From Chthonomonadaceae bacterium (GTDB lineage Bacteria > Armatimonadota > Chthonomonadetes > Chthonomonadales > Chthonomonadaceae), in assembly GCA_965277875.1 (NCBI GenBank), contig CBDIDV010000002.1:4578997-4642996 (forward strand): DNA of 64,000 nucleotides, given 5' to 3'. A program made the position numbers and the translations under genes. A model generated the notes under the pieces. That model was not told the DNA's origin and searched no databases. It saw only the letters and a list, made by a program, of their open reading frames with translations. Each line of letters opens with the position of its first letter. Position 1 is the stretch's first letter. Below, in pieces: positions 2,338 to 58,613 of the stretch.

Positions 2338-3225
2338 ATGTCTCTAAGTACAAAGCGATTGAGCGGTGTGCTGACCGCGATATTGACGCCGTTCGACGTG
2401 AACGGCGATCTGGCCCTGGAACATTTCCCGGCCCTGCTGGGCTTTCAGCGGAATGCGGGCATTGACGGCGTGATCGTGTGCGGCACGAACGGGGAAGGCA
2501 CGTCGCTTTCCGTAAGCGAACGTAAGCTGGCTCTGGAAGCGGTAATGGCGCATCGGGGGGACTTGGCGGTTGTGGCGGGAACCGGAGCCGTGAGCATTAC
2601 GGACGCCATAGAACTGACGCGTCATGCCGCAAACGTGGGCGCGGACGCGGTTCTTGTGCTGCCGCCGTTCTTCTACAAAAATCCGAGCGCGCAAGGGCTG
2701 GCGGACTACTTCAAAGCCGTTCTGGACGCCGCGCCCATCCCAAATCTGCTGTACAACATTCCGCAGCACAGCGCGGTCGAGGTGACGGACGAGGTCTTGA
2801 CCCTGCTGCATGGACACCCCAATCTGGCGGGACTGAAAGACAGTTCGGGCGAGTGGGCGAGCGCCCTGCACTACATCGAAACGTACCCCGATCTGCAAAT
2901 TTTCGCGGGCAGCGACAAACTGGCGAGCCGCAGCTTCGCGCAGGGCGCAAACAGCATATCGGGCGGCGCGAACATGTTTCCCGAAGTGGTCACAGCCATA
3001 CGGGACGCGGCAAGGCAGGGCCTGGAGCAGGCACAGGCCGCGCAAGCCCGCGCCGACGCCGCATTCGCCATCACCACGCGCTACCCCTTTATCTCGACCA
3101 GCAAAAGCGTGATCGCGCAGCGCGGCCTGCCGCGCCTGGGCGTTCGCCCGCCCCTCGTTCCCCTCTCCCACGCGCAGGAACAGAGCCTGATTGCGGAGCT
3201 TACCTCGGCGGGTCTGCTGTCTTGA
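2338..3225 (+). CDS. DapA-family class I aldolase (dihydrodipicolinate synthase-like lyase)
   Basis: GTNGEGTSLS matches the DapA/NAL GxxGE motif and (beta/alpha)8 pattern. ATG at 2338. The stop TGA lies inside the left arm of a palindromic repeat. Confidence 0.7.
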   Translation: MSLSTKRLSGVLTAILTPFDVNGDLALEHFPALLGFQRNAGIDGVIVCGTNGEGTSLSVSERKLALEAVMAHRGDLAVVAGTGAVSITDAIELTRHAANVGADAVLVLPPFFYKNPSAQGLADYFKAVLDAAPIPNLLYNIPQHSAVEVTDEVLTLLHGHPNLAGLKDSSGEWASALHYIETYPDLQIFAGSDKLASRSFAQGANSISGGANMFPEVVTAIRDAARQGLEQAQAAQARADAAFAITTRYPFISTSKSVIAQRGLPRLGVRPPLVPLSHAQEQSLIAELTSAGLLS

Positions 3226-3336
3226 ACTGTGATGCGATTGTCTGAACCATGATTTATCGGATTAAGATGACTACCATGATTAGATGCGTCTTCGTCATGG
3301 TAATCGTTTAATCAGACGCATCACAGCTCAAGACAA
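3219..3336. repeat. palindromic intergenic element (family R3 variant) with GTCTTGAAC / GTTCAAGAC ends
   Basis: gtcttgaactgtgatgcg ... cgcatcacagctcaagacaac inverted arms. The stop codons of both convergent flanking genes (3225 TGA and 3328 TGA) sit inside the GTCTTGA ends. Confidence 0.55.
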
Positions 3337-4221
3337 CGAAAGACGGTCGTTCAGCCAAACGAGCAAATCGGAAAATACCTGTTCGCGGTCAGGCAGGCGT
3401 TCGTTATAAACCTCGTGCATCAGGCCGGGGTACAAGTGCCAGGTGTGCGTGGTCTGAGGGTGGGCTGAGGTCAACAGATCATAGACGGTTTTGGACTCGG
3501 TGGGTGAGCAGACCTGATCCGCGCCGCCCGCCTGCCATAGCGTGGGCCAGTGAACGCCTGCCACATCGAAATGCGCCTGCGCCATTGCGCGATACGTCGC
3601 CATAAACCACGCGGGCGTGGTAAAGCCGGGCATCAACGGATCGTTAAGGGCGGCCTGCTGCTCTACGACATCGTGCGTGAGCAGTTCGGGGCGCAGCTTG
3701 AGGGGGAAATGGTAATTGGGTGCGACGCGGGCCAGAACTTTGCCCAGCGCGGCCTGCCACGCGGGAACCGGAAAGCCCACGCCCAGCAGCGGCCCGCTCA
3801 AAACGGTTCCGGCAAAGGGAAAGGCGTGTTCCCTCTGAGCGTGACGCAGCGCGACCAGTCCGCCCATGCTATGCCCGAACACAAAGGCAGGAACGTCGCC
3901 GGCAATGCCCTGCCTCAGACGCGCATAGGCGGTGTCCAGATCGGCGACATACGTGTCGTAATCGTCAATCACCATGCGCGGCCCGCCCGAACGCCCCATG
4001 CCCCGATGATCGCAGCCGCCGACTCGAAAACCTTTCGTGGTCAACTGCCGCGCCAGCCTGCCGTAGCGTCCCAGATGCTCGCCGTAGCCGTGCGACAGCA
4101 GGATCGTGGCCCTGCCTTCGGAGTGGGGCAGATCGGGCATCCATTCGGTGTAGTGCAGCGGCGTGCCGTCGGGCGCGGTCAGAAGCGTTTCAATGTCTGC
4201 GGCTGTATTCGGCACGGTCAT
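3328..4221 (-). CDS. alpha/beta hydrolase (lysophospholipase / monoglyceride lipase-like)
   Basis: HGYGEH oxyanion region and GHSMGG nucleophile elbow, 297 aa. Confidence 0.8.
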   Translation of the reverse strand: MTVPNTAADIETLLTAPDGTPLHYTEWMPDLPHSEGRATILLSHGYGEHLGRYGRLARQLTTKGFRVGGCDHRGMGRSGGPRMVIDDYDTYVADLDTAYARLRQGIAGDVPAFVFGHSMGGLVALRHAQREHAFPFAGTVLSGPLLGVGFPVPAWQAALGKVLARVAPNYHFPLKLRPELLTHDVVEQQAALNDPLMPGFTTPAWFMATYRAMAQAHFDVAGVHWPTLWQAGGADQVCSPTESKTVYDLLTSAHPQTTHTWHLYPGLMHEVYNERLPDREQVFSDLLVWLNDRLSLS

Positions 4222-7142: not shown

Positions 7143-8051
7143 TTAGTAGCCGCAGTAGTGGCCCTGCGACGTGGTAAAGTCGTAGTCGGGGCGGAACAGG
7201 TAAGCGTGGTCATACTGGGCGTCGTACCAGCTTAACTGCGCATACGCGTTTTTGTCATACGTGCAGTAAGGATCGGTCATCCATCCGTTGCGGGCGGGCT
7301 GTACCACGGCTGCCATCGTGCGGAATTTCGTGTGTCCATCGGCATACGTAAACACCTGCCCGTTGCCGTGCGTCGTCATGGGGCCATCCACGTTGCCGCC
7401 GTTCCACAGATAATCGTAGCAGCCATCTGTGCTGCAGGAGCCATTGCTTTTCACGGCCGTATACGTGCATCCCGCGCTGCCGTCGCACTCCATGTCCGGG
7501 TTGGCGGTCTGATAGCCGAGCAATTTGGCCTTGCCGTCGCCTTCCCACACGGCGGGGCAGGAGGCGGGATTGGCGATGCCCGCGAGCGTATAGCCATGCA
7601 GATCGCCGTTGAAGCTATATGTGACGGGAACCGGCGCGACCGCGCCCGGCGTCGGCAATCCCGACAGCTTCACAAGCTGCGCGCTGGGGCAGGCCAGCAC
7701 CTGATAGTTCTTTATGTAGGGCTGTGTGGAGTTGGCCCAGAACTGCGAGTAGGCGGTGGTGAGAGCGGCGGACTGGCCCGGAATCCAGTTGGCCGGAACC
7801 GACATGAAGTAGTACCACAGCCACTGCCCGTTGTACTTGGGATAGGCGAGGGCATACGTTTCATCGTAGTCCTGCACGTACATCATCAGGCCCGTACCCA
7901 GTTGTTTCTGGTTGGACAGGCACGATGTCTGGCGGGCCTTTTCGCGGGCCTGAGCGAAGACGGGGAAGAGGATCGCGGCGAGGATCGCGATGATGGCGAT
8001 GACCACGAGCAGTTCGATGAGGGTAAACCCTCGACGTAAACCAGAACGCAT
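7143..8051 (-). CDS. prepilin-type N-terminal cleavage/methylation domain + DUF1559 (H-X9-DG) protein
   Basis: [32 protein letters not shown] class III signal. [12 protein letters not shown] and C-terminal [12 protein letters not shown]9-DG motif. Confidence 0.85.
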
Positions 8052-8500
8052 GACAAGACTCCTTCTGACAACAGTTGAGCGACGTACAGAAATAGGGCCT
8101 ACTTCATTGTATGCGTGTTTGCAGCGAACGATGCGGTTGTGCGCACAGGTAGAAAAGCAACATCAGCCACGCCACAACAGGCGCAGGCAGGCGGTCAGCA
8201 GGGACGCGCGGGCGAAACGAGGGACAAACCTTGTCGGGGACAACAACAGCGTCGTCAACAGCAAATCAGCAGTACACTATCAGGATGTTATTATAACATA
8301 TACAACGAGTGTATTGTACACCAATAGGACGAATTTATAGGAAGGGCGCACCAAAATTGTCCAAATCGTTCATAGGTCTAAATCCTCGTCCAGCTACACG
8401 CTCTGCGGTATAGCGCAGAAATTGGTAACAAAAGCGGCGTGTTCAGCAAAACTGCCGAACACGCCGCTTCTAATAAGCGAGAACATCTGCATAGACCGAG

Positions 8501-48614: not shown

Positions 48615-50438
48615 ATGGCAATGGCACGCAAAAGTCTTGGCGATTATATGCTCGAAAAGCAGTATCTCACCCAGACGCAGTTGGACGAGGCGCGCAAAGC
48701 GCAGCAAAGCACGCGCGGCGATCTGGCTAAAATCCTTGTGGAGATGGGCATTGACGGGCGCAAGGTGTACGAGGCCAAGGCGCAGGAGATGGGCGTACAG
48801 TACGCCAACCTTGCCATCTTCAAGCCCGAACCCTCCGCCATCAACGTCGTGCCGGAACACGTCGCCAAGCGGCACAACGTCATGCCGCTGAAAAAGCAGG
48901 ACAACATTTTGTTCGTCGCGATGGCCGATCCCGGCAATTTACAGGCGTCCGACGATCTGCGCCTGGTTTCGCGCTGTACCATCCGCCCTGTCATGGCCCC
49001 GCCCGCCGACATCGAGGAGACTATTGGCCGCAGCTACGGCAGCGCCCTCACTCCCCTGGACAACGCCACGGTCGCTGCGGCGACTACGACCGGCTCGTCT
49101 GCCAAACTTATGCCCGGCATGAACCCCAACAAGGGCGGTGGCGGCACGGAAGTGATGGACGTAGATACCAAGTCGGCCTTGGCCGAAGTCATAGCCTTGC
49201 AAGGGGCCGGCAAAGCCGCGATGGACGGCGAAAAAGAGGATGAAGCCGCTGCGGCGATGGTCGAGGAAGCGCCTATTGTGCGCCTCGCCAACACGATTTT
49301 GCAGTCGGCCATCAAAGAAAAGGCGTCGGATATTCACATCGAGCCGGATCGCCGCTACATCCGTGTCCGCTTCCGCATTGACGGCGTACTTCACGAAGTG
49401 ATGCAGATGCCCGCGTACATCAAGCAGCCCTTGATCGCCCGCTACAAAATCCTGTCGGAAATGAACATCGCCGAGCGGCGCGTTCCCCAGGACGGACGTA
49501 TCGGAACGCGCTACGACGGCAAAGAGTACGACCTGCGCGTATCGTGCCTGCCCAGCCTGCACGGCGAAAAGATCGTCATGCGTATCCTGGACAAGGGCAG
49601 CGTCATGCTCGGCATGAACAAACTCGGCTTTACGCCCGAAATGCAGGCGCAGATCGAGGAGCTGGCCTCGCAGCCCAACGGTATGCTGCTGTCTACCGGC
49701 CCCACGGGATCGGGCAAAACGACAACGCAGTATAGCCTGCTGAACAAACTCAACACGATTGAGAAGAACATTCTCACCGTGGAAGACCCCTGCGAATACC
49801 AGCTAAGCGGCATCACGCAGGTGCAGGTGAACAAGAAGGCCGGTCTGACGTTCTCGTCCGCCCTGCGCTCGTTCTTGCGGCAGGACCCGGACATCATCAT
49901 GGTCGGGGAAATGCGCGACCTGGAAACCGCTGAAATCGCCATTGAATCGGCGCTTACGGGCCACCTTGTGCTGAGTACGCTGCACACCAACGACGCGCCC
50001 TCGGCAACCATCCGCTTGATTGACATGGGCATCGAGCCATTCCTTATCTCGGCCACGATCATCGGCGTCATGGCGCAGCGGCTTGGACGCCGTATCTGCA
50101 CAAACTGCAAAGAGTATTATGAGGTTCCGGCCCCCGACCTGCGCCGTTTCGGCTACAAGGTGACAGACCCGGCTGAGATGGTACAGCTTGCGCGGGGCAA
50201 GGGCTGCGAGATGTGCCGCAACACGGGCTACAAAGGCCGCGTCGGCTTCTACGAGCTGATGACGATGAACGCGGAAATGGCCGAAATGATTGTGCGCCGC
50301 GCCCCGCTCACCGACCTGAAAGAAGCCGCCAAAGCCAACGGCATGAAGGAACTGCGCGAAGACGGACTTATCAAAGTCCTCCAGGGCCAGACCACTCCCG
50401 AAGAGGTCATGCGCGTAGTCTTCACCGCAGGCTTCTAA
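48615..50438 (+). CDS. pilB: type IV pilus assembly ATPase PilB (GspE family), full length
   Basis: N-terminal T2SSE_N-like domain. GPTGSGKTT Walker A, TVEDPCEY Asp box, IIMVGEMRD Walker B, GHLVLSTLHTN His box and a CxxC...CxxC tetracysteine. Confidence 0.9.
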   Translation: MAMARKSLGDYMLEKQYLTQTQLDEARKAQQSTRGDLAKILVEMGIDGRKVYEAKAQEMGVQYANLAIFKPEPSAINVVPEHVAKRHNVMPLKKQDNILFVAMADPGNLQASDDLRLVSRCTIRPVMAPPADIEETIGRSYGSALTPLDNATVAAATTTGSSAKLMPGMNPNKGGGGTEVMDVDTKSALAEVIALQGAGKAAMDGEKEDEAAAAMVEEAPIVRLANTILQSAIKEKASDIHIEPDRRYIRVRFRIDGVLHEVMQMPAYIKQPLIARYKILSEMNIAERRVPQDGRIGTRYDGKEYDLRVSCLPSLHGEKIVMRILDKGSVMLGMNKLGFTPEMQAQIEELASQPNGMLLSTGPTGSGKTTTQYSLLNKLNTIEKNILTVEDPCEYQLSGITQVQVNKKAGLTFSSALRSFLRQDPDIIMVGEMRDLETAEIAIESALTGHLVLSTLHTNDAPSATIRLIDMGIEPFLISATIIGVMAQRLGRRICTNCKEYYEVPAPDLRRFGYKVTDPAEMVQLARGKGCEMCRNTGYKGRVGFYELMTMNAEMAEMIVRRAPLTDLKEAAKANGMKELREDGLIKVLQGQTTPEEVMRVVFTAGF

Positions 50439-50514: not shown

Positions 50515-51834
50515 GTGGCTGAAAACGTAGAAGAAGCCGCCGTACAGATCGTGGATACAGATACCAAGTCAGCGCTTGCCGAAGTAATCGCTCTAGCCGG
50601 ATCGCGGGATGAGGCCGCCTTCTTTGAGGACATGGCTTCTTATAAGGAAGTAGCTGCGCGAGTAGAAGAAGCGCCGATTGTACGACTCGCTAACACGATT
50701 TTACAGTCGGCTATCAAAGCAGGCGCATCGCATATTCATATCGAGCCAAATCGCCGCTATACCGGTGTGTACTTCCGCATCGACGGCGTACTGTACGAAT
50801 TGGCGGCAATGCCGAAATATGCTCAACGCCCGCTTATACAGCGTTACAAAGTTCTGGCAAGCGTCAACATTATTGAGTACCGTGTGCCGCAATCGGGGGA
50901 AATAGGCGCTCGCTACGACGGCAGCGCTTACAATTTGATTGTGAGTTTTTTGCCGACTCTGCACGGCGAAAAAGTGGTAATCCGTATTGCAGATCCCTGC
51001 CTGCCGAAACTTACGCTGGATCAACTTGGCTTCACGCCGGATGTGCAGGCGCGGCTTGAAGATGTTTTGACAAACCGACGTGGCATGTTGTTGATTGCCG
51101 GGGCGACCGGGCAGGGCAAAACAACTACGCAATACGCTTTACTGAACAAGTTGATTCAAAGCGGGCTGACTGCTATCGCCGTTGATAGCGTTTATGATTA
51201 CGAACTTAGCGGTGTCACGCAAGTCAAGCTGAACAAGCAAATTGGGTACACGGCGGAAGAAGCGCTGGCGTCCGTTGCTTTGCTGGACATTGATGTTGTC
51301 GCGCTTGGCAGTTGTCCGAGCAAAGAGGCGCTGAACATCGCTTTGCAGATGGCGGCAGACAGCCAATTTGTTATCCATACACTGAGTTCTCATGGTCCTG
51401 CCGGTGTCCTGAACCGACTGCTGAACATCGGCGCAGCTCCTTCCCTGATTGCGGAAGGCGTCCATAGCATTCTTGTGCAAAGACTGGCGCGAAAGGTTTG
51501 CGCCCACTGCAAAGAGTCCTACGAAATCTGTGCCGATGAACTGCGACCCTTTGGCTATGACAGCGCCGGCCCCTATGAAATGGTACAGCTTGCTAGAGGT
51601 AAAGGCTGTGAGATGTGCCGCAACACGGGCTACAAGGGCCGCATCGGACTGTTTGAACTAATGACCATGAATGCGGAAATGGCAGAGGCAACAGCACGGG
51701 GCGCAGGCAAAAATTCTTTGATGGAAGCCGTCAAAGCCAATGGCATGATGGAAATGCGCGAAGACGGCCTCATCAAAATCTTACAGGGCGTTACCACCCT
51801 GGAAGAAATAATGCGCGTGGTTCCGGTAAGTTAA
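50515..51834 (+). CDS. catalytically degenerate PilB/GspE paralog (PilB') lacking the N-terminal domain
   Basis: Aligns to PilB from residue ~180 onward with high identity at both ends. Walker A is altered (GATGQGKTT), Asp box AVDSVYDY, Walker B VVALGSCPS, His box SQFVIHTLSSH. The tetracysteine is retained. GTG start. Confidence 0.75.
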   Translation: MAENVEEAAVQIVDTDTKSALAEVIALAGSRDEAAFFEDMASYKEVAARVEEAPIVRLANTILQSAIKAGASHIHIEPNRRYTGVYFRIDGVLYELAAMPKYAQRPLIQRYKVLASVNIIEYRVPQSGEIGARYDGSAYNLIVSFLPTLHGEKVVIRIADPCLPKLTLDQLGFTPDVQARLEDVLTNRRGMLLIAGATGQGKTTTQYALLNKLIQSGLTAIAVDSVYDYELSGVTQVKLNKQIGYTAEEALASVALLDIDVVALGSCPSKEALNIALQMAADSQFVIHTLSSHGPAGVLNRLLNIGAAPSLIAEGVHSILVQRLARKVCAHCKESYEICADELRPFGYDSAGPYEMVQLARGKGCEMCRNTGYKGRIGLFELMTMNAEMAEATARGAGKNSLMEAVKANGMMEMREDGLIKILQGVTTLEEIMRVVPVS

Positions 51835-52123: not shown

Positions 52124-52729
52124 ATGCCGAACACTCGTTGCCGCGCGTTTACATTGGTGGAACTGTTGGTTGCTGTGGGCGTGATTGGGATACTGGCGGC
52201 GTTGCTGTTTCCTGTGGTCAACAAAGCGCGAAGTCAGGCGCGCAAGACGACGTGCCTGTCCAACCTGCGGCAGGTCGGTCTTGCGCTTAATCTGTACGAG
52301 CAGGATTGGGGGCAGTACGCGCCGCAGGGCTGGCACGACAACAGCCAGGATCTTGAACTCGTGCTGCCTGACCCGCTCGCCGCGTACACGCACGGCGCGG
52401 CGCTGTACCAGTGTCCCGAAACCAAATGCGAGTACAGTTTTCGCGGCTCGCTTGAAATGGATCTGGACGGACACTATAAATTGTTTCAGATGGCCCCGGA
52501 TAACGTACTTGCCTATTGCCCCCACGAGGATCATATTGAAGGACGCAAAGGCGACTTCTACCAGGTACTGCGTCAGGATATGTCGGTCAGCCGCGTACCC
52601 TCCGCCGATGTGAAGCTATGGTACTACATCAACGGGACATGGCAGCCGAACGCGCCCGCTTCCGAGTCGTATCAGCCGGGCGTAGTAGTGTTTCCCGGCG
52701 AAACGTGGCCGCTGCCGTTCACGAACTGA
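52124..52729 (+). CDS. type IV pilin-like protein (class III signal peptide)
   Basis: AGGAGA ribosome-binding site. MPNTRCRAFTLVELLVAVGVIGILAALLFPV. A TTCLSNLRQVGLALNLY segment shared with the DUF1559 proteins, but no H-X9-DG motif. Confidence 0.75.
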   Translation: MPNTRCRAFTLVELLVAVGVIGILAALLFPVVNKARSQARKTTCLSNLRQVGLALNLYEQDWGQYAPQGWHDNSQDLELVLPDPLAAYTHGAALYQCPETKCEYSFRGSLEMDLDGHYKLFQMAPDNVLAYCPHEDHIEGRKGDFYQVLRQDMSVSRVPSADVKLWYYINGTWQPNAPASESYQPGVVVFPGETWPLPFTN

Positions 52730-52740
52730 GAGTAAATTCT

Positions 52741-53142
52741 ATGACATCCTTTGCCCATGCGGAGATTTCGAGTTCAGGGAGCATCCAGACCGACATAAAC
52801 AATGCCGCCCGCAGGAAGGGATTGTTTATGTTCATCGAAAAGGCAAAGGAAGCCCAAGAGATCGCCCCTGAAACTGCGGAACTGGCATGGAGTACCTGGA
52901 ACCTGTTGAGCCGGACACTTGCACAGACGCTAATGGTTCCCGATGCCTCGTGTGGGCCGGACGATCAAATGCTGTTCCTGTGGGACAAAGACGAGCATCA
53001 CCTGGGACTTGAAATCGAGGCGACCGGAAACGGTTACTTTTTTTATCGCAATCGAGCGTCAGGAGCATTGTGGGACATGGACTACACACCGGGAAATGCT
53101 CTTAGCAGCGATGTGGTTGAGAAGCTGAGGATGTTTGCCTGA
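52741..53142 (+). CDS. hypothetical protein (133 aa), unknown function, inside the pilus cluster
   Basis: ATG ORF with good GC3. No signal peptide, no recognisable domain. Confidence 0.4.
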   Translation: MTSFAHAEISSSGSIQTDINNAARRKGLFMFIEKAKEAQEIAPETAELAWSTWNLLSRTLAQTLMVPDASCGPDDQMLFLWDKDEHHLGLEIEATGNGYFFYRNRASGALWDMDYTPGNALSSDVVEKLRMFA

Positions 53143-53145
53143 TTT

Positions 53146-53655
53146 ATGTCCATGCCGCTAATTCATGCCGGGCAGCAGGGAGAACGTCTGCCGGACGGCG
53201 AGAGAGTTCTTCGCCTGCTGAAAAAGACAACGAACGATGGGAAAGTTTCTCCTGACGAGTTTGAGCTTTCCACGCAGGATAAGCAGTCCCTGCTGCAATC
53301 CCTTTCAGTCTGGGCCGAGCGCCTGACGACGCCGGAGCAGGCGCGGGCGTTTATGGGCGACAAAAAGTACAGCTACTCCCTGTACTGTTCACTTGCAGTA
53401 GACACAATACGCGCACTTAGGCCGGAGCCGGATGCGAGCGCCGTTCGCCCACTGGATGTTGTCTGGGATCTGCTTACAATGGCGCAGCAAGACCATGAGG
53501 GTGCGTATGTGCCTCTGGGTATGGAAGGGCATTGCGGCCTGATGGGTTTGATGCGCCCGCCCGGTCTGTCAAAGCAGCATTTCTTCAGCCTGAGAAGCCA
53601 GTTAGCAGATTTAGCGAATAGCAGTCTCGCAAGCATACGCCGGGAACCGGACTGA
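53146..53655 (+). CDS. hypothetical protein (169 aa), translationally coupled to the previous ORF
   Basis: Its ATG is 4 nt after the stop of 52741-53142. No recognisable domain. Confidence 0.4.
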   Translation: MSMPLIHAGQQGERLPDGERVLRLLKKTTNDGKVSPDEFELSTQDKQSLLQSLSVWAERLTTPEQARAFMGDKKYSYSLYCSLAVDTIRALRPEPDASAVRPLDVVWDLLTMAQQDHEGAYVPLGMEGHCGLMGLMRPPGLSKQHFFSLRSQLADLANSSLASIRREPD

Positions 53656-53799: not shown

Positions 53800-55167
53800 T
53801 TGGCAAACAATCCGTACCCAACCCAGCCGCCTGGACAGCCGGGCGGTCAACAGCCGCAGCAGCCGGGAGGACAGCAGCCGACGGCCTACAACCCGGTTGC
53901 CACGCAACAGATGCCCGGAATGACGGGGCAGCCGCAGCAGTTACCCGGCCAGTCCACGCAGCCGGGGCAAATGCCCGTGCCGCAGGGCATCGGCCAGCCG
54001 ATGCCTACGGCACAGCCGATGCCTGCCGTGCAGGCCGTGCAGGTGGCATCCGCCAAGCCCACGCCGCTTGACGACGCGCATATTGACGACCTGCTGATGA
54101 CCATGTTCGAGAAGGGCGCGTCCGACCTGCACCTTGCCGTGGGAATCCCGCCCATCATCCGCGTGGACGGCGCGCTGGTTCCCTGCCCCTACGAGAAACT
54201 CAGCCCGCAGCACTCGCAGCGCCTGATCTACGACATCCTGACCGACGAGCAGATACAGCGGTTTGAAACGCACATGGAACTGGACTTTTCGTACCAGCTT
54301 GCGCGTACCGCCCGCTTCCGCGTCAACGTGTTTCGCGACAAGGGCAACGTGGCGAGCGCGTTCCGCCAGATCCCGCAGAAAATCCCGACACTCAAGGACC
54401 TGAACCTGCCCAACGTGCTGGAAGAGCTAACGCGCCTGCCGCGCGGCCTGGTCCTCGTGACCGGCCCGACGGGATCGGGTAAGTCCACCACGCTCGCCGC
54501 CATGATCAACCAGATCAACAGCGAAGTGAGCAAGCATGTCATCACGATTGAAGACCCGATTGAGTACCTGCACAACCACCGCACCAGCGTTATCAATCAG
54601 CGCGAAGTCGGCCAGGATACGCTGGAATTCAAGAACGCCCTGCGCGCCGCCCTGCGCGAAGACCCGGACGTGATCCTCGTCGGCGAAATGCGCGACCTGG
54701 AAACCATGCAGATGGCCGTGTCCGCAGCCGAAACGGGCCACCTTGTGTTCGCCACGCTGCATACCAACAGCGCGGCAACCTCGGTCGAGCGCATCGTGGA
54801 CTCGTTCCCGTCCGGTCAGCAGGAGCAGGTACGCCTTCAGTTGTCCAACAACCTGCAGGCGATCCTGTGCCAGCAGCTTATCCCGCGCGCCAATCAGCCG
54901 GGACGCGTCTGCGCCCTGGAGATCATGCGCGCTTCTCCGGCCATCCGCAACCTGATTCGCGAGGCCAAAGCGCATCAGATCACGAGTATGATCCAGACCA
55001 GCGCGAACCTGGGAATGCAGACAATGGATCAATGCTTGCGCGACCTGTACGTTCGGGGCCAGATCAGCTTCGAGGAAGCCATGACGCGCGCCATGAACCC
55101 GCCGGAACTGGAAAAGATGATTCGCACGGTCACAGCTCCGCTCGATGCCAAGCCCGCCGGAAGATAG
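53800..55167 (+). CDS. pilT: twitching-motility ATPase PilT with ~95-aa Pro/Gln-rich N-terminal extension (TTG start; N-terminus uncertain)
   Basis: Canonical PilT from LDDAHIDDLLMTMFEKGASDLHL onward: GPTGSGKSTT, IEDPIEY, ILVGEMRD, GHLVFATLHTN and the AIRNLIRE motif. Confidence 0.85.
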   Translation: MANNPYPTQPPGQPGGQQPQQPGGQQPTAYNPVATQQMPGMTGQPQQLPGQSTQPGQMPVPQGIGQPMPTAQPMPAVQAVQVASAKPTPLDDAHIDDLLMTMFEKGASDLHLAVGIPPIIRVDGALVPCPYEKLSPQHSQRLIYDILTDEQIQRFETHMELDFSYQLARTARFRVNVFRDKGNVASAFRQIPQKIPTLKDLNLPNVLEELTRLPRGLVLVTGPTGSGKSTTLAAMINQINSEVSKHVITIEDPIEYLHNHRTSVINQREVGQDTLEFKNALRAALREDPDVILVGEMRDLETMQMAVSAAETGHLVFATLHTNSAATSVERIVDSFPSGQQEQVRLQLSNNLQAILCQQLIPRANQPGRVCALEIMRASPAIRNLIREAKAHQITSMIQTSANLGMQTMDQCLRDLYVRGQISFEEAMTRAMNPPELEKMIRTVTAPLDAKPAGR

Positions 55168-55245
55168 ACACCTGCGCTTTCCTCTCTCCTGGTTTTTGGA
55201 GAAGAGGGAAAGGCGGAAGTTTGTTGACACCGCCGGAAGTTTCTA

Positions 55246-55283
55246 CCCTCACCCCCGGCCCCTCTCCCTGCATGGGAGAGGGA
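55246..55283. repeat. hairpin repeat (family R6)
   Basis: ccctcacccccggcccctctccc-tgcatg-ggagaggga. A second copy at 63483-63521 reads ccctcacccccggcccctgtccc-acgcgt-gggacagggg. Confidence 0.5.
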
Positions 55284-55349
55284 GTGAAGGTGCAGCCGGG
55301 TTCGTTGTTATCCGCAAATTCTATCCGACGCGCAACGTGAACGGACTGA

Positions 55350-55399
55350 CCTTCTCCCTCCGGGAGAAGGTGCGCGGAGCGCGGATGAGGGCCACAAAG
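55350..55399. repeat. REP-like hairpin element (family R4, copy 2)
   Basis: ccttctccctccgggagaaggtgcgcggagcgcggatgagggccacaaag. Confidence 0.5.
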
Positions 55400-55457
55400 T
55401 TATGTTGGGAGCGTTCCCTATAACCTAGAACCTACCTGCGCTTCAGGGAGAAACGTC

Positions 55458-55940
55458 ATGCCCATCTTCCAGTACACGGTGCTTGACCAGAGCGGAACTA
55501 TTCGTACTGGCACGTCGGAGGCCAGTGACAGCGAAATTCTTGATTATCGCCTGCGAGAGCAGGGTTTCGACGTCAAGGACATTCAGCCGGTAAACCAGCG
55601 CGCAAATCGGACATTTCCTGTTCGGGTAGCGCGTACTGATGTACTGGTGTTCTGGATACAGTTTTCGATTATGATTGACGCGCAGGTGGCGCGCTGGCGT
55701 TCCCTGGATGTTGCGGCAGAACAGGCGGCTTCGCCCGTCTTCAGGAACGTGCTGACCAAGCTTTCCAACCAGGTAATGGGAGGTACGCCCTTGTATCAGG
55801 CGATGGAACTGTATCCCCACGTGTTCGACAAGCCGAGCGTCGGCATCATCCGCGCCGGCGAAGTCGCCAACGCCTTGCCCGATGCGGTTCACCGCCTGAT
55901 ACAGTTTATGGAACGCGACCGGCGGCGCGAACGCGTTTAA
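55458..55940 (+). CDS. truncated PilC/GspF paralog (first T2SSF domain only, 160 aa)
   Basis: MPIFQYTVLDQSGTIRTGTSEASDSEILDYRLREQGFDV... parallels the pilC N-terminus. It ends after the first cytoplasmic domain and has no TM helices. Confidence 0.6.
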   Translation: MPIFQYTVLDQSGTIRTGTSEASDSEILDYRLREQGFDVKDIQPVNQRANRTFPVRVARTDVLVFWIQFSIMIDAQVARWRSLDVAAEQAASPVFRNVLTKLSNQVMGGTPLYQAMELYPHVFDKPSVGIIRAGEVANALPDAVHRLIQFMERDRRRERV

Positions 55941-56067
55941 CCTTGTGCCTGGACTGCCCTTTTACACACTCTTGTTAGACAACCTGCGTACACTGCCGAT
56001 GTATGCCGCGCCTGCAATTTTCGTTTCGTGATTTACCGTGCGTCCGCTTGGGAAGGAACCTAAACCA

Positions 56068-57327
56068 ATGCCCGTTTTTCAATATACTGTGCGTGACCAG
56101 ACCGGGGCCGTCCGCACCGGAACTTCGGAAGCGGAAAGCCAGGAGATCCTGAAGCGCCGCCTGCAGGAGCAGGGCTTTCAAGTCAACGAGGTCAGCGCGA
56201 CCAAAGGCAAAAAGAAAAAGTCGGCCACGGCGGGCTTCGGCAAAGTAAAACTGCACGACCTGTCCATCTTTTGCCGCCAGTTCTCCACAATGATTGATGC
56301 GGGCGTGTCGCTCGTGCGCGCCCTGGACGTGTTGGGCGAGCAGACGCAGAACCCCAAACTCAAGCGCATCCTCAAAGAGATACAGGTCGAAGTCGAGTCG
56401 GGCGGCCAGTTGTCCAAAGCGATGCAGAAGTACCCTAAAGTCTTCAGCAACCTGTTCATCGGGCTTGTGCGGGCGGGGGAAGTCGGTGGTGTACTCGAAG
56501 AAGCCCTCCAGCGCCTGTCCCACTTCCTTGAAAAGGACATGGAACTCAAGCGCAAGGTGAAGTCGGCCATGACGTATCCCGTCATCGTCCTGGTCGTCGC
56601 CCTGCTCATCGTGCTTGGCCTGTGTACCTTCATCGTCCCCAAGTTCGTAGACCTGTTCAAAGACCTGGGCGTCAAGGAACTGCCCGCCATGACGCAGTTC
56701 CTCGTGGATGTCAGCGACTTTATCAAAACGAAATGGTACGTCGGTATCATTATTATCCTGGTGGTGTGGTTTTCCATCAAATACTTTGGCACAACCAAAG
56801 TCGGGCGGCGCGTCATTGACCGCGTCAAGCTGAAAGTGCCGGTCTTTGGCAAGCTGGGACACAAAATCTGTATCGCGCGTTTTTCGCGCACACTGGCAAC
56901 TCTGCTTGTGTCGGGCGTACCGATTTTGCAGGCGATGGAAACCGTGGCCGGAACGCTGGGCAATGAGATCATTGCCGAGGCCGTGATGAACGCCCGCGCC
57001 CGCATCCGTGAGGGTGACAAGATCAACGAGCCGCTGGAAAAAAGCAAGATGTTCCCGCCAATGGTCGTTCACATGATCAGCATCGGCGAGGAGTCGGGCG
57101 CGCTCGACCAGATGCTTTCCAAAGTGGCCGAGTTCTATGAGGCCGAGGTGGAAGCCTCTCTCGCCAGTCTGACGGCGGCCATCGAGCCGGTCATGATCGT
57201 TGTCCTGGGCATCATCGTCGGCTTCATCGTTATCGCCATGTTCATGCCCCTGATCGCGGTCATCCAGAACCTGACGGGCGGCGGCGACGACGAGAACAAG
57301 AAGTCCGGCGGCGCCGCCAGCGAGTAG
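56068..57327 (+). CDS. pilC: type IV pilus inner-membrane platform protein PilC (GspF family)
   Basis: Two T2SSF domains and three TM helices. GGAAGGA ribosome-binding site upstream of the ATG at 56068. Confidence 0.9.
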   Translation: MPVFQYTVRDQTGAVRTGTSEAESQEILKRRLQEQGFQVNEVSATKGKKKKSATAGFGKVKLHDLSIFCRQFSTMIDAGVSLVRALDVLGEQTQNPKLKRILKEIQVEVESGGQLSKAMQKYPKVFSNLFIGLVRAGEVGGVLEEALQRLSHFLEKDMELKRKVKSAMTYPVIVLVVALLIVLGLCTFIVPKFVDLFKDLGVKELPAMTQFLVDVSDFIKTKWYVGIIIILVVWFSIKYFGTTKVGRRVIDRVKLKVPVFGKLGHKICIARFSRTLATLLVSGVPILQAMETVAGTLGNEIIAEAVMNARARIREGDKINEPLEKSKMFPPMVVHMISIGEESGALDQMLSKVAEFYEAEVEASLASLTAAIEPVMIVVLGIIVGFIVIAMFMPLIAVIQNLTGGGDDENKKSGGAASE

Positions 57328-57409
57328 GAAAGGGGCAGGGAAAAGGAGAAAGGAAACAGGAGAAAGCAGCGTCGCCGTCACTTTCTCCTTTCTCCTTTTC
57401 CCTTTTTCC
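57327..57409. repeat. family R1 repeat (hairpin-capable polypurine/polypyrimidine)
   Basis: ggaaaggggcagggaaaaggagaaaggaaacaggagaaagcagcgtcgccgtcactttctcctttctccttttccctttttcct. Lies between pilC and pilD. Confidence 0.55.
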
Positions 57410-57419
57410 TGAAGCAAGC

Positions 57420-58613
57420 ATGATTGTTCCTGTCGCCTTCTGGGGTATCACGATGTTTGCGCTGGGCATCACGGTCGGCAGTTTTCTGACGGCGGTGATT
57501 TATCGGCTTGGGCAGCAGGCGCTCGGATTGCAGACATTAAGCCTGCTGGAACCCAAGCGCTCGATGTGTCCCATTTGCAGGCATTCGCTGGGTGCGCTGG
57601 ACTTGATACCGCTGTTCAGTTTTCTGCTTGCCGGACAGAAGTGCCGCTACTGCAAAGCGCCGATCTCGTGGCGCTACTTCGGCGTGGAACTGCTGACGGG
57701 CCTGCTGTTTGTAAGTTTGTTTCTGCACTTTCCGCATACCACGATGCGGGACGTGCCTACCCTGATCGCCGCGCTCGCGTTCGGCGCGACCCTGATCCCC
57801 ATCTTCTTCATTGACCTGGAAACGTATACCATTCCGATCTCGCTGACCCTTCTGGCAACGGTGATCCCCGTTGCAAGGGATATATGGGGCATCACGCATC
57901 ACGAAATGGGATACGAACTGGTATGGGGATGGCTGCCGCGCTCGATTTTGGGCGGCCTGATAGGCGGATTAATCTTCGGATTCGTGCGTGTGTCGGGCTG
58001 GATATACAAGGGCATTGAGGCGATGGGCCTGGGCGACGTATATCTGGCACGGGGAATGGGCGCGATGCTGATGATCTCCATGCCGCCCGCCCTGGCTGCG
58101 GGGTGGTTTTTCCTGTGGGTGATACTGTCCTGCGTGACGGCTATAGTCGTCTACCCGATAGACAAGGCCGTTCGGCGCAAGGCGAATGCAAAAAAAATTT
58201 CGCTGACCGGGCAAAAAACTCTGGATCGGTACGGAAATACGCCTGCTCCTGTGGAATTAACCGGCAAACCGGGCGATAATGAAGACGAGCAATCGGAAGA
58301 AACTCTATCCTGGCAGCGCGAAGGCACATTCGGCGCGCAGGTGCGCGACATTGCCGAGGCCCTGTTCGGCTACGACGCCCTGGAATGGACGCGCTACACC
58401 TTTGACCGCAAGTACCGACAGCGCCTGGAAGCCGAGGCCGTAAACCTGCCGGACGAGGAAGAATGGACGCCCGCCGACACCGCCATTCCGTTCGGCCCGT
58501 TCCTTGTCGTAGGCTTCCTGCTGACCCTGTTCTTCGGCCCGGCCCTGCTCACCGCCTATTTCGCCTACACACATCTGTTTGCGCCCGCAAACACGGCTTC
58601 GGTCACGCAATAG
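57420..58613 (+). CDS. pilD: prepilin peptidase/N-methyltransferase PilD (A24 family) with ~100-aa cytoplasmic insertion
   Basis: N-terminal CPICRH...CRYC zinc motif. Catalytic-Asp context FIDLETYTIP. Eight TM helices. The inserted acidic segment is KANAKKISL...DEEEWTPADT. Confidence 0.85.
   Translation: MIVPVAFWGITMFALGITVGSFLTAVIYRLGQQALGLQTLSLLEPKRSMCPICRHSLGALDLIPLFSFLLAGQKCRYCKAPISWRYFGVELLTGLLFVSLFLHFPHTTMRDVPTLIAALAFGATLIPIFFIDLETYTIPISLTLLATVIPVARDIWGITHHEMGYELVWGWLPRSILGGLIGGLIFGFVRVSGWIYKGIEAMGLGDVYLARGMGAMLMISMPPALAAGWFFLWVILSCVTAIVVYPIDKAVRRKANAKKISLTGQKTLDRYGNTPAPVELTGKPGDNEDEQSEETLSWQREGTFGAQVRDIAEALFGYDALEWTRYTFDRKYRQRLEAEAVNLPDEEEWTPADTAIPFGPFLVVGFLLTLFFGPALLTAYFAYTHLFAPANTASVTQ

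Follow-up and report, generated by a model that had tools for sequence, protein, structure and literature searches.

In type IV pilus and type II secretion machines, the way in which hexameric motor ATPases couple to the platform protein PilC/GspF is one of the most poorly understood steps, and what is pictured of it derives from models and from PilC N-terminal regions truncated in the laboratory. Purified PilB is reported to bind PilC's N-terminal domain, and PilC to stimulate PilB (as cited in PMC5424180 and PMC5595344). In an AlphaFold2-multimer model of the PulE6:PulF3 complex, each cytoplasmic (Cyto) domain binds one N2 domain of the ATPase (PMC10790770). In the PulF trimer model, which is validated by cross-linking, Cyto1 packs on Cyto2 within and between protomers via two conserved patches, giving an alternating Cyto1/Cyto2 ring with the first transmembrane segment (TMS1) as part of the protomer interface, and the PulF N-domain is mobile and dispensable, yet needed for full efficiency (PMC10790770). 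In Synechocystis, the PilC N-terminal domain (NTD) both self-interacts and docks PATAN regulators (bioRxiv 10.1101/2021.06.11.447907). Here we analyze a 64,000-nucleotide stretch of the genome of a Chthonomonadaceae bacterium (contig CBDIDV010000002.1; hereafter, the window) that carries, immediately upstream of a full-length pilC, a short gene, pilC', encoding the N-domain and Cyto1 as a separate soluble protein. The analysis below shows what pilC' is, how its product folds, how the gene is conserved, selected and placed among its neighbors, and how it evolved; the candidate partners of its product are then weighed.

pilC' encodes a soluble paralog of the PilC N-terminal region

Alignment of PilC' residues 1-159 with PilC residues 1-162 yields 69/162 identical positions (43%; BLASTP expectation value (E) 2e-44), which bears out the original prediction that pilC' is a truncated pilC paralog consisting of the N-domain and the first cytoplasmic domain only. 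The similarity runs from end to end of PilC', well past the first 25 residues, and the end of PilC' falls opposite PilC residues 159-162, just short of the first transmembrane (TM) helix, TM1. The prediction had also described an intact frame with its own ribosome-binding site (RBS), and both are present, as a 160-aa open reading frame (ORF) with GGGAGA 6 nt before its ATG.

Full-length PilC has two matches to the Pfam T2SSF family (E 5e-71) and matches the NCBIfam PilC model of Thermus type (E 2e-136), whereas PilC' has a single T2SSF stretch (PF00482; E 4.1e-13, 49.8 bits against a gathering cut-off of 25.2) that covers profile positions 4-95 of 125. The missing last ~30 profile positions correspond to the TM1 part, and the Cyto2 repeat is not present. 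The predicted absence of TM helices likewise held: with a 19-residue window, the hydropathy maximum of PilC' is 1.3, compared with 3.35 for TM1 of PilC. Neither the three TM segments nor the second T2SSF repeat that are hallmarks of platform proteins were found in PilC', and on the curated NCBIfam equivalog models it reached at best 81.7 bits for PilC of Myxococcus type (cut-off 700) and 74.5 bits for GspF (cut-off 424). Because these hallmarks fail, PilC', which belongs to the T2SSF domain family by homology and fold, should not be annotated as PilC; the labels that databases give to members are generic ("type II secretion system F family protein" or "PulF"). Since the spacer downstream of pilC' is only 127 bp long, there is no room for a decayed remainder of the gene. 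A split platform, with the other half encoded elsewhere in the window, was also considered and rejected, as tblastn found no second T2SSF gene in the window able to supply the missing C-terminal half.

An AlphaFold2 model of PilC', built on a 24-sequence alignment, has a mean predicted local distance difference test (pLDDT) score of 90.6. It places three strands (residues 3-9, 15-21 and 38-44) and one helix (residues 25-34) in the N-domain (residues 3-44), followed by a lower-confidence linker (residues 45-58) that varies in length and sequence among orthologs and by a six-helix bundle (residues 59-159). In Foldseek comparisons with the PDB, the bundle matched V. cholerae EpsF (2VMB/3C1Q; TM-score to target 0.82-0.85, root-mean-square deviation (rmsd) 1.2-1.9) as well as D. 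dadantii OutF (5NBG), Thermus PilC (2WHN) and TcpE (4HHX), the Cyto1 matches together spanning TM-scores to target of 0.80-0.89, rmsd values of 1.2-2.4 Å and E of 4e-7 to 9e-4. The N-domain gave weak matches to T7 Gp2 and YkzG (E 0.06-0.08), both of which are structural homologs reported for the PulF N-domain (PMC10790770). At the level of sequence profiles, PF28597 (T2SSF_N) is precomputed on all PilC' orthologs, and a profile search of PDB sequences with PilC' retrieved M. xanthus PilC (5e-25). The N-domain is the portion of PilC' closest to PilC; the linker carries three Arg and no Lys, compared with seven Lys in the linker of PilC.

Residue conservation was scored against a reference set of 119 full-length PilC/GspF proteins, using columns conserved in at least 60% of them, up to PilC residue 155. 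The soluble PilC' family keeps the majority residue in 24 of the 36 conserved columns. Most of the universally conserved residues are present in PilC', namely G13, G18, A22, L32, G36, F65, Q68, L83, G109, A115, P120, F123, G134, E135, L140 and E152. Because most conserved PilC/GspF residues are kept, the surfaces of the Cyto1 binding module appear to be largely retained in PilC'. Differences from PilC in the soluble family include R70 to I, G79 to Q and G141 to N (the last in the soluble form), and the family possesses invariant motifs of its own, namely VLVFWIQFSIMID, GIIxAGExxNA and the C-terminal RLIQFMERDRRR tail.

Conservation, ancestry and genomic setting of pilC'

A homolog search of 5.8 billion proteins returned 17 sequences besides PilC' itself, all of them short. 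Among them, P0018 is part of a genuine PilC from a short contig and P0017 is a TM-anchored relative; the remaining 15 are intact, 157-178 aa long and 51-83% identical to the PilC' of the window, and they share a common end point. Among the related loci compared with the window (labelled with the prefix L), pilC' lies between pilT and pilC in every one inspected (L001-L004, L007-L009 and L014), and this slot is fixed in 11 soluble-type loci, including L005 and L006, where the gene is frameshifted. The block around it is conserved in the order ruvX-yceG-HAD-aroE-pilB...pilT-pilC'-pilC-pilD-pilin. Pairwise Nei-Gojobori ratios of nonsynonymous to synonymous divergence (dN/dS) are 0.07-0.23 for pilC', so that the conservation in relatives that the original prediction had proposed to look for is found in 15 other intact orthologs under purifying selection. 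A GGAGA(A) motif stands at the same distance from the start codon in L003, L004, L007 and L008 and recurs in most orthologous loci, the pilT-pilC' spacer being otherwise unconserved.

Disrupted copies of pilC' occur only in L005 and L006, which are nanopore-derived Chthonomonadaceae metagenome-assembled genomes (MAGs) from one sample and are the two GTDB-species representatives with a soluble pilC'. In L006 (pilC' at 8001-8480), frameshifts also affect pilC, pilD and a large downstream gene. In L005 (pilC' at 7470-7960), ~4-7 indels fall within pilC' (~480 bp) and two frameshifts lie in pilT, the latter in the region of its low-complexity N-terminal extension. We rejected these copies as evidence of decay, as they come from nanopore bins in which other genes are frameshifted too; the L005 indel cluster is suspicious, not decisive, and decay may be real there. 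A functionless remnant of a tandem pilC duplication whose frame is still open would fit the truncation of pilC', its absence from 20 related clusters and the several indels in L005, but it is hardly credible given 16 intact copies with a shared end point in lineages down to 50% mutual identity, low dN/dS, invariant family motifs, a conserved RBS, a confident fold and the additional frameshifts in pilC, pilD and pilT of the very MAGs that carry the disrupted copies. Conservation and dN/dS effectively rule out a pseudogene, and pilC' is a real conserved gene rather than a decaying fragment.

The ancestry of pilC' is illuminated by an exhaustive profile search of 1.84 billion representatives, in which a second tier of short proteins (184-201 aa) outranks every full-length PilC. 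These proteins consist of the N-domain, Cyto1 and one C-terminal hydrophobic helix at the position of PilC TM1 (19-residue hydropathy 2.2-2.9). They share an FW[IL] motif with the soluble type, and their genes occupy the identical pilT/pilC slot and neighborhood in 4-5 loci (L010, L012, L013 and L036). In a neighbor-joining tree of the N-terminal regions of soluble, TM-anchored and PilC proteins, soluble PilC' is monophyletic (100%), soluble and TM-anchored proteins group together (78% bootstrap) and the cognate PilC proteins form a clade (96%). These data are most simply explained if pilC was duplicated in tandem, one copy was cut short after TM1, and the clade of the window later lost the anchor; because relatives keep a TM-anchored version, the solubility of PilC' is a derived state. 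The grouping of both types in one clade at 78% bootstrap points to a single origin. The present distribution may reflect one gain with later losses or else transfer from lineage to lineage, the PilC tree being too poorly resolved to place the carriers as monophyletic or to choose between these two courses.

A metagenome scan with a PilC alignment yielded 25 further loci, and in 20 of these 25 (PilC 62-84% identical) pilT is directly followed by pilC, across a gap of 40-222 bp or, in one case, an unrelated Uma2-like insert. The pilT-pilC gap of L027, a locus without pilC', holds an unrelated ORF (2790-3500), which resembles a Uma2-family endonuclease. Because these 20 related pilB-pilT-pilC-pilD loci are without it, pilC' is lineage-restricted, and it is confined to a subset of Chthonomonadales-like Armatimonadota; its named carriers are "uncultured Chthonomonadaceae" MAGs and one "Chthonomonadales bacterium" protein. 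Several other short T2SSF_N+Cyto1 matches outside the lineage in the 1.84-billion search look like contig-end or chimeric fragments, e.g., with tails SEEHTSELQS.

Within the window, the + strand bears a type IVa pilus motor cluster identified with Pfam and NCBIfam models (Table 1), and further pilin genes lie 3' of pilD. PilC is taken to start at ATG 56068 and not at GTG 56038 because all orthologs begin MPVFQYTV. A terminator scan of 55100-56120 found 0 terminator-like sites; since there is none between them, pilC' and pilC are probably co-transcribed. Neither the pilT-pilC' spacer nor the pilC'-pilC spacer has an Rfam match or anything conserved beyond the RBS, and an RNA element in either was rejected for want of an Rfam match, conservation and a terminator.

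Table 1. Coordinates in the window of the motor-cluster genes and of the elements of pilC'.
Feature	Coordinates	Strand	Description
pilB	48615..50438	+	Assembly ATPase (MshEN + T2SSE, Pfam); catalytic motifs all intact; candidate binding partner of PilC'
pilB'	50515..51834	+	PilB paralog, N-terminally truncated and catalytically degenerate; 53% identity to PilB 169-602
Pilin-like gene and two small ORFs of no assigned family	52124-53655	+	Between pilB' and pilT
pilT	53800..55167	+	Retraction ATPase (Pfam T2SSE); invariable upstream neighbor of pilC' in all loci examined
pilC' RBS	55446..55451	+	Shine-Dalgarno-like GGGAGA, 6 nt 5' of the pilC' ATG; read from sequence
pilC'	55458..55940	+	ATG start, 160 aa, TAA stop at 55938-55940; soluble PilC paralog (N-domain + Cyto1)
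pilC' N-domain (T2SSF_N)	55458..55589 (codons 1-44)	+	beta-beta-alpha-beta; AlphaFold2 and Pfam PF28597
pilC' variable linker	55590..55631 (codons 45-58)	+	Block of lowest pLDDT (~70)
pilC' Cyto1 six-helix bundle	55632..55937 (codons 59-160)	+	Foldseek against PDB; ends in the conserved RLIQFMERDRRR tail
pilC'-pilC spacer	55941..56067	+	127 bp, no predicted terminator
pilC	56068..57327	+	ATG, 419 aa: N, Cyto1, TM1, Cyto2, TM2, TM3
pilD	57420..58613	+	Prepilin peptidase; Pfam A24_N_bact / Peptidase_A24 on orthologs; closes the conserved block

Several further features of the cluster were observed. The gap between pilC and pilD contains a very stable hairpin (57325-57412; predicted free energy -42.9 kcal/mol, z -4.3 against shuffles). 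Its start coincides with the stop codon of pilC and a U-run comes after it; the hairpin may act as terminator or attenuator, and it gave spurious weak miRNA matches in Rfam. The N-terminus of PilT (53800-54090) is a ~95-residue Pro/Gln/Gly-rich extension before the ATPase core, which is unusual for PilT, and the PilT proteins of relatives (427-483 aa) have N-terminal extensions of similar length. Between pilB' and pilT, the segment 51835-53655 encodes an 86-aa ORF, a 201-aa prepilin-like gene with an N-terminal cleavage/methylation motif and ORFs of ~133 and ~169 aa that have no family match; the gene content of this segment varies among related loci.

The genes of the cluster differ widely in their rates of change. 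When the same pairs of genomes are compared, identity is 89-99% for PilB, PilT and PilC, 50-82% for PilC', 54-94% for PilB' and 63-77% for PilD, and PilC is 83-96% identical among pilC'-bearing loci. The core motor (PilB, PilT and PilC) is under unusually strong protein- and codon-level constraint in this lineage, compared with PilD. Divergence at fourfold-degenerate sites is ~2 times higher in pilC' and pilB' than in pilB, pilT and pilC, and G+C content at third codon positions (GC3) is 0.56-0.69 in the accessory genes versus 0.68-0.85 in the three core genes. Together, these values agree with codon usage being strongly constrained in core genes of high expression and with the accessory genes being expressed less, and the lower GC3 of pilC' (0.57-0.68, compared with 0.75-0.82 for pilB, pilT and pilC) fits an accessory, less highly expressed gene. 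The raised synonymous divergence of pilC' was rejected as a sign of an unusual process, pilB' and pilD being alike and core GC3 much higher. One locus pair, L001 (9750-10240) and L009, shows only 30-63% DNA identity over the pilT-pilC' spacer and the 5' half of pilC', compared with 95-98% in the flanks (pilT, pilC and pilD), which indicates a local recombination or replacement tract; because of this tract, PilC' is only 72% identical between the two loci, where PilB' is 94% and PilC 99% identical.

Candidate partners of PilC'

Docking at the pilus base is the most probable role for PilC', because Cyto1 contacts the motor ATPase and packs against Cyto2 in the platform ring. We tentatively favor, with slightly less than even confidence as to partner and effect, a reading in which PilC' docks on the N2 domain of the ATPase and modulates the engagement of motor and platform. 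pilC' would then serve the type IVa pilus motor as an accessory gene, functional and translated, the free N + Cyto1 module of which docks at the pilus base. There, PilC' would occupy, instead of a cytoplasmic domain of PilC, an N2 domain of a hexamer from the PilB family (PilB, PilT or, in genomes that have it, inactive PilB') and would tune how often or how productively the motor engages the platform, acting as a stoichiometric modulator or competitor and not as a structural core part. Competition for the PilB/PilT docking site, as the original prediction had suggested, is plausible in view of published work on PilC's N-terminal domain (PMC5424180, PMC5595344, PMC10790770), and binding to PilC itself would be equally compatible with the data here.

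Several observations weigh against docking on the N2 domain. The universally conserved Arg of the F-x-R-Q motif (R70 in PilC) is an invariant Ile in PilC' and a Leu in the TM type, and the polar face of helix alpha1 (S66/R70/T74 in PilC) is replaced by L63/I67/I71 together with W66, which are invariant in the family; should this be the face that touches the ATPase, docking of the canonical kind would be changed or abolished. Within the genome pairs compared, PilC' evolves 5-15 times faster than the PilC N-terminal region, a speed not to be expected if it strictly mimicked a surface to which the near-invariant PilB and PilT bind. The 20 related clusters without pilC' imply that it is dispensable for the basic machine, and the pilC' of L005 carries several indels, though the same assembly has frameshifts in pilT. 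The lost Arg and the hydrophobic stripe show that PilC' is not a simple copy of the PilC surface, and the stripe suggests an obligate partner.

That partner could be PilC itself, with PilC' capping or joining the Cyto1/Cyto2 ring and thereby helping assembly, supplying the ring with an additional subunit or poisoning the oligomerization of the platform. The two Cyto1 patches, the alternating ring and the position of TMS1 in the protomer interface (PMC10790770) are all compatible with such an association, and the ancestral N + Cyto1 + TM1 comprises exactly the elements that contact a neighboring protomer. Most of the conserved Cyto1 residues are kept in PilC', the gene always directly adjoins pilC, and an obligate partner is what the invariant stripe on helix alpha1 suggests. 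However, in the clade of the window the gene outlasted the loss of TM1, which means that PilC' need not insert into the PilC bundle in the membrane, and the contrast between PilC at 90-99% identity and PilC' at 50-82% is a poor fit for a tight, co-evolving heteromer. On balance, we consider association with PilC unlikely, though it is the main alternative to docking on the ATPase.

The pilB' gene offers another candidate. As had been claimed, pilB and pilB' form a pair (53% identity), in which PilB' is without the first ~168 residues of PilB; it aligns with PilB 169-602, and the MshEN region is absent. In 8/8 PilB' orthologs (those of the window, L001, L002, L003, L005, L006, L007 and L009), other residues have taken the place of the Asp-box Glu, of the catalytic Glu in Walker B and of both histidines in the His box, whereas the tetracysteine Zn motif and, in most cases, the Walker A Lys persist; judged by these residues, PilB' is a conserved pseudo-ATPase. 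Among genomes with pilC', only a subclade has the gene. It is missing from five pilC' loci (L004, L008, L010, L013 and L014), and conversely L033 and probably L028 have a pilB'-like gene and no pilC'. Since each occurs alone, the idea that pilC' and pilB' are paired duplicates is not supported; of the two genes, pilC' has the greater age and the wider distribution.

These patterns bear on the proposal that PilC' acts specifically with PilB' as a second, inactive motor-platform pair, i.e., a brake or clutch sub-complex. Both genes lie in the cluster of the window and both are fast-evolving with low GC3, and PilB' has lost catalytic Glu and His residues but preserves its N2 domain, its C-terminal domain and the Zn motif, which would let it bind Cyto1 and yet not turn it. 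Against this, co-occurrence fails in both directions, so that the phyletic pattern weakens the proposal, pilC' is the older gene, and the L001/L009 pair combines a PilB' identity of 94% with a PilC' identity of only 72%; we regard a dedicated partnership with PilB' as improbable. More broadly, PilC' could be a trans-acting motor regulator on ATPase N2 sites or on PilC Cyto2 that gates PilB/PilT engagement and, in the later subclade, forms a brake- or clutch-like inactive complex with PilB'. This composite view, taken as a whole, strikes us as quite unlikely; if true, it would provide a regulatory principle new for type IV filament machines as well as a soluble probe of the ATPase-platform interface.

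A different possibility is that PilC' leaves the motor untouched and serves as a decoy or docking hub, i.e., a spare PilC N-terminal region for regulators or phage pilus inhibitors. The binding of PATAN regulators to the Synechocystis PilC NTD, the closer resemblance of the N-domain than of other parts of PilC' to PilC, the fast evolution of the gene and the recombination tract over its 5' half between otherwise 95-98% identical loci would all fit this proposal. Yet the locus has no associated regulator or phage gene, the dN/dS values stay well under 1 and, at the resolution used, give no hint of positive selection, and the idea is purely analogical, for which reasons we give it little credence.

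The long retention of pilC' as a separate selected gene, first TM-tethered and then cytosolic, implies that the N + Cyto1 unit has a function of its own. This suggests that pilus motors may be tunable by sub-stoichiometric domain mimics, and PilC' represents a soluble, evolution-tested reagent for binding and structural work with PilB, PilT and PilC. A practical limit is that the carriers are poorly studied, mostly uncultured Chthonomonadales-like Armatimonadota.

Comparison with known systems

In a full-text search of the literature, a natural N-domain-only paralog of PilC was not described. PilC' is homologous to PilC/GspF, sharing the same N-domain and six-helix bundle (TM-score to target 0.80-0.89) and the same gene cluster. 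It differs from PilC/GspF in ending before TM1 and being without Cyto2, TM2 and TM3, so that it cannot be a membrane platform or channel, and in the replacement of the FxRQ Arg by Ile, the hydrophobic stripe on helix alpha1 and its 5-15 times faster evolution.

The nearest natural analogy is found in Tad pili, where the platform function is divided between TadB and TadC (CpaG/CpaH), which have one T2SSF repeat each, are both integral membrane proteins and jointly replace PilC. The likeness to PilC' is that of a natural polypeptide with a single T2SSF repeat encoded beside its partner; the pilC' locus, however, also has a complete PilC, and its short protein has one TM helix (in the relatives) or none (in the window).

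The nearest functional analogy is provided by laboratory constructs. Recombinant PilC NTDs, used in P. aeruginosa for pull-down with PilB and in Synechocystis (PilC 1-173) for yeast two-hybrid assays, have boundaries nearly identical to those of PilC' (1 to ~160-173), and they are soluble, self-interact and bind PilB and regulators. These are properties of the constructs, which are laboratory truncations, whereas PilC' is a natural, selected gene that has diverged from the parental domain. Shortened PilC products also arise in pilC truncation mutants (Synechocystis glucose-tolerant strains and a 32-aa N-terminal truncation in PAO1), but these are losses of function in a sole pilC, and pilC' is a separate conserved gene beside an intact pilC.

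The eukaryotic microProteins (ID and LITTLE ZIPPER-type) follow the same logic of duplication after which the interaction domain alone is kept, and PilC' likewise derives from a larger protein and retains only the interaction domain. The analogy is conceptual and without homology to PilC'; the known members titrate the partners of the parent protein.

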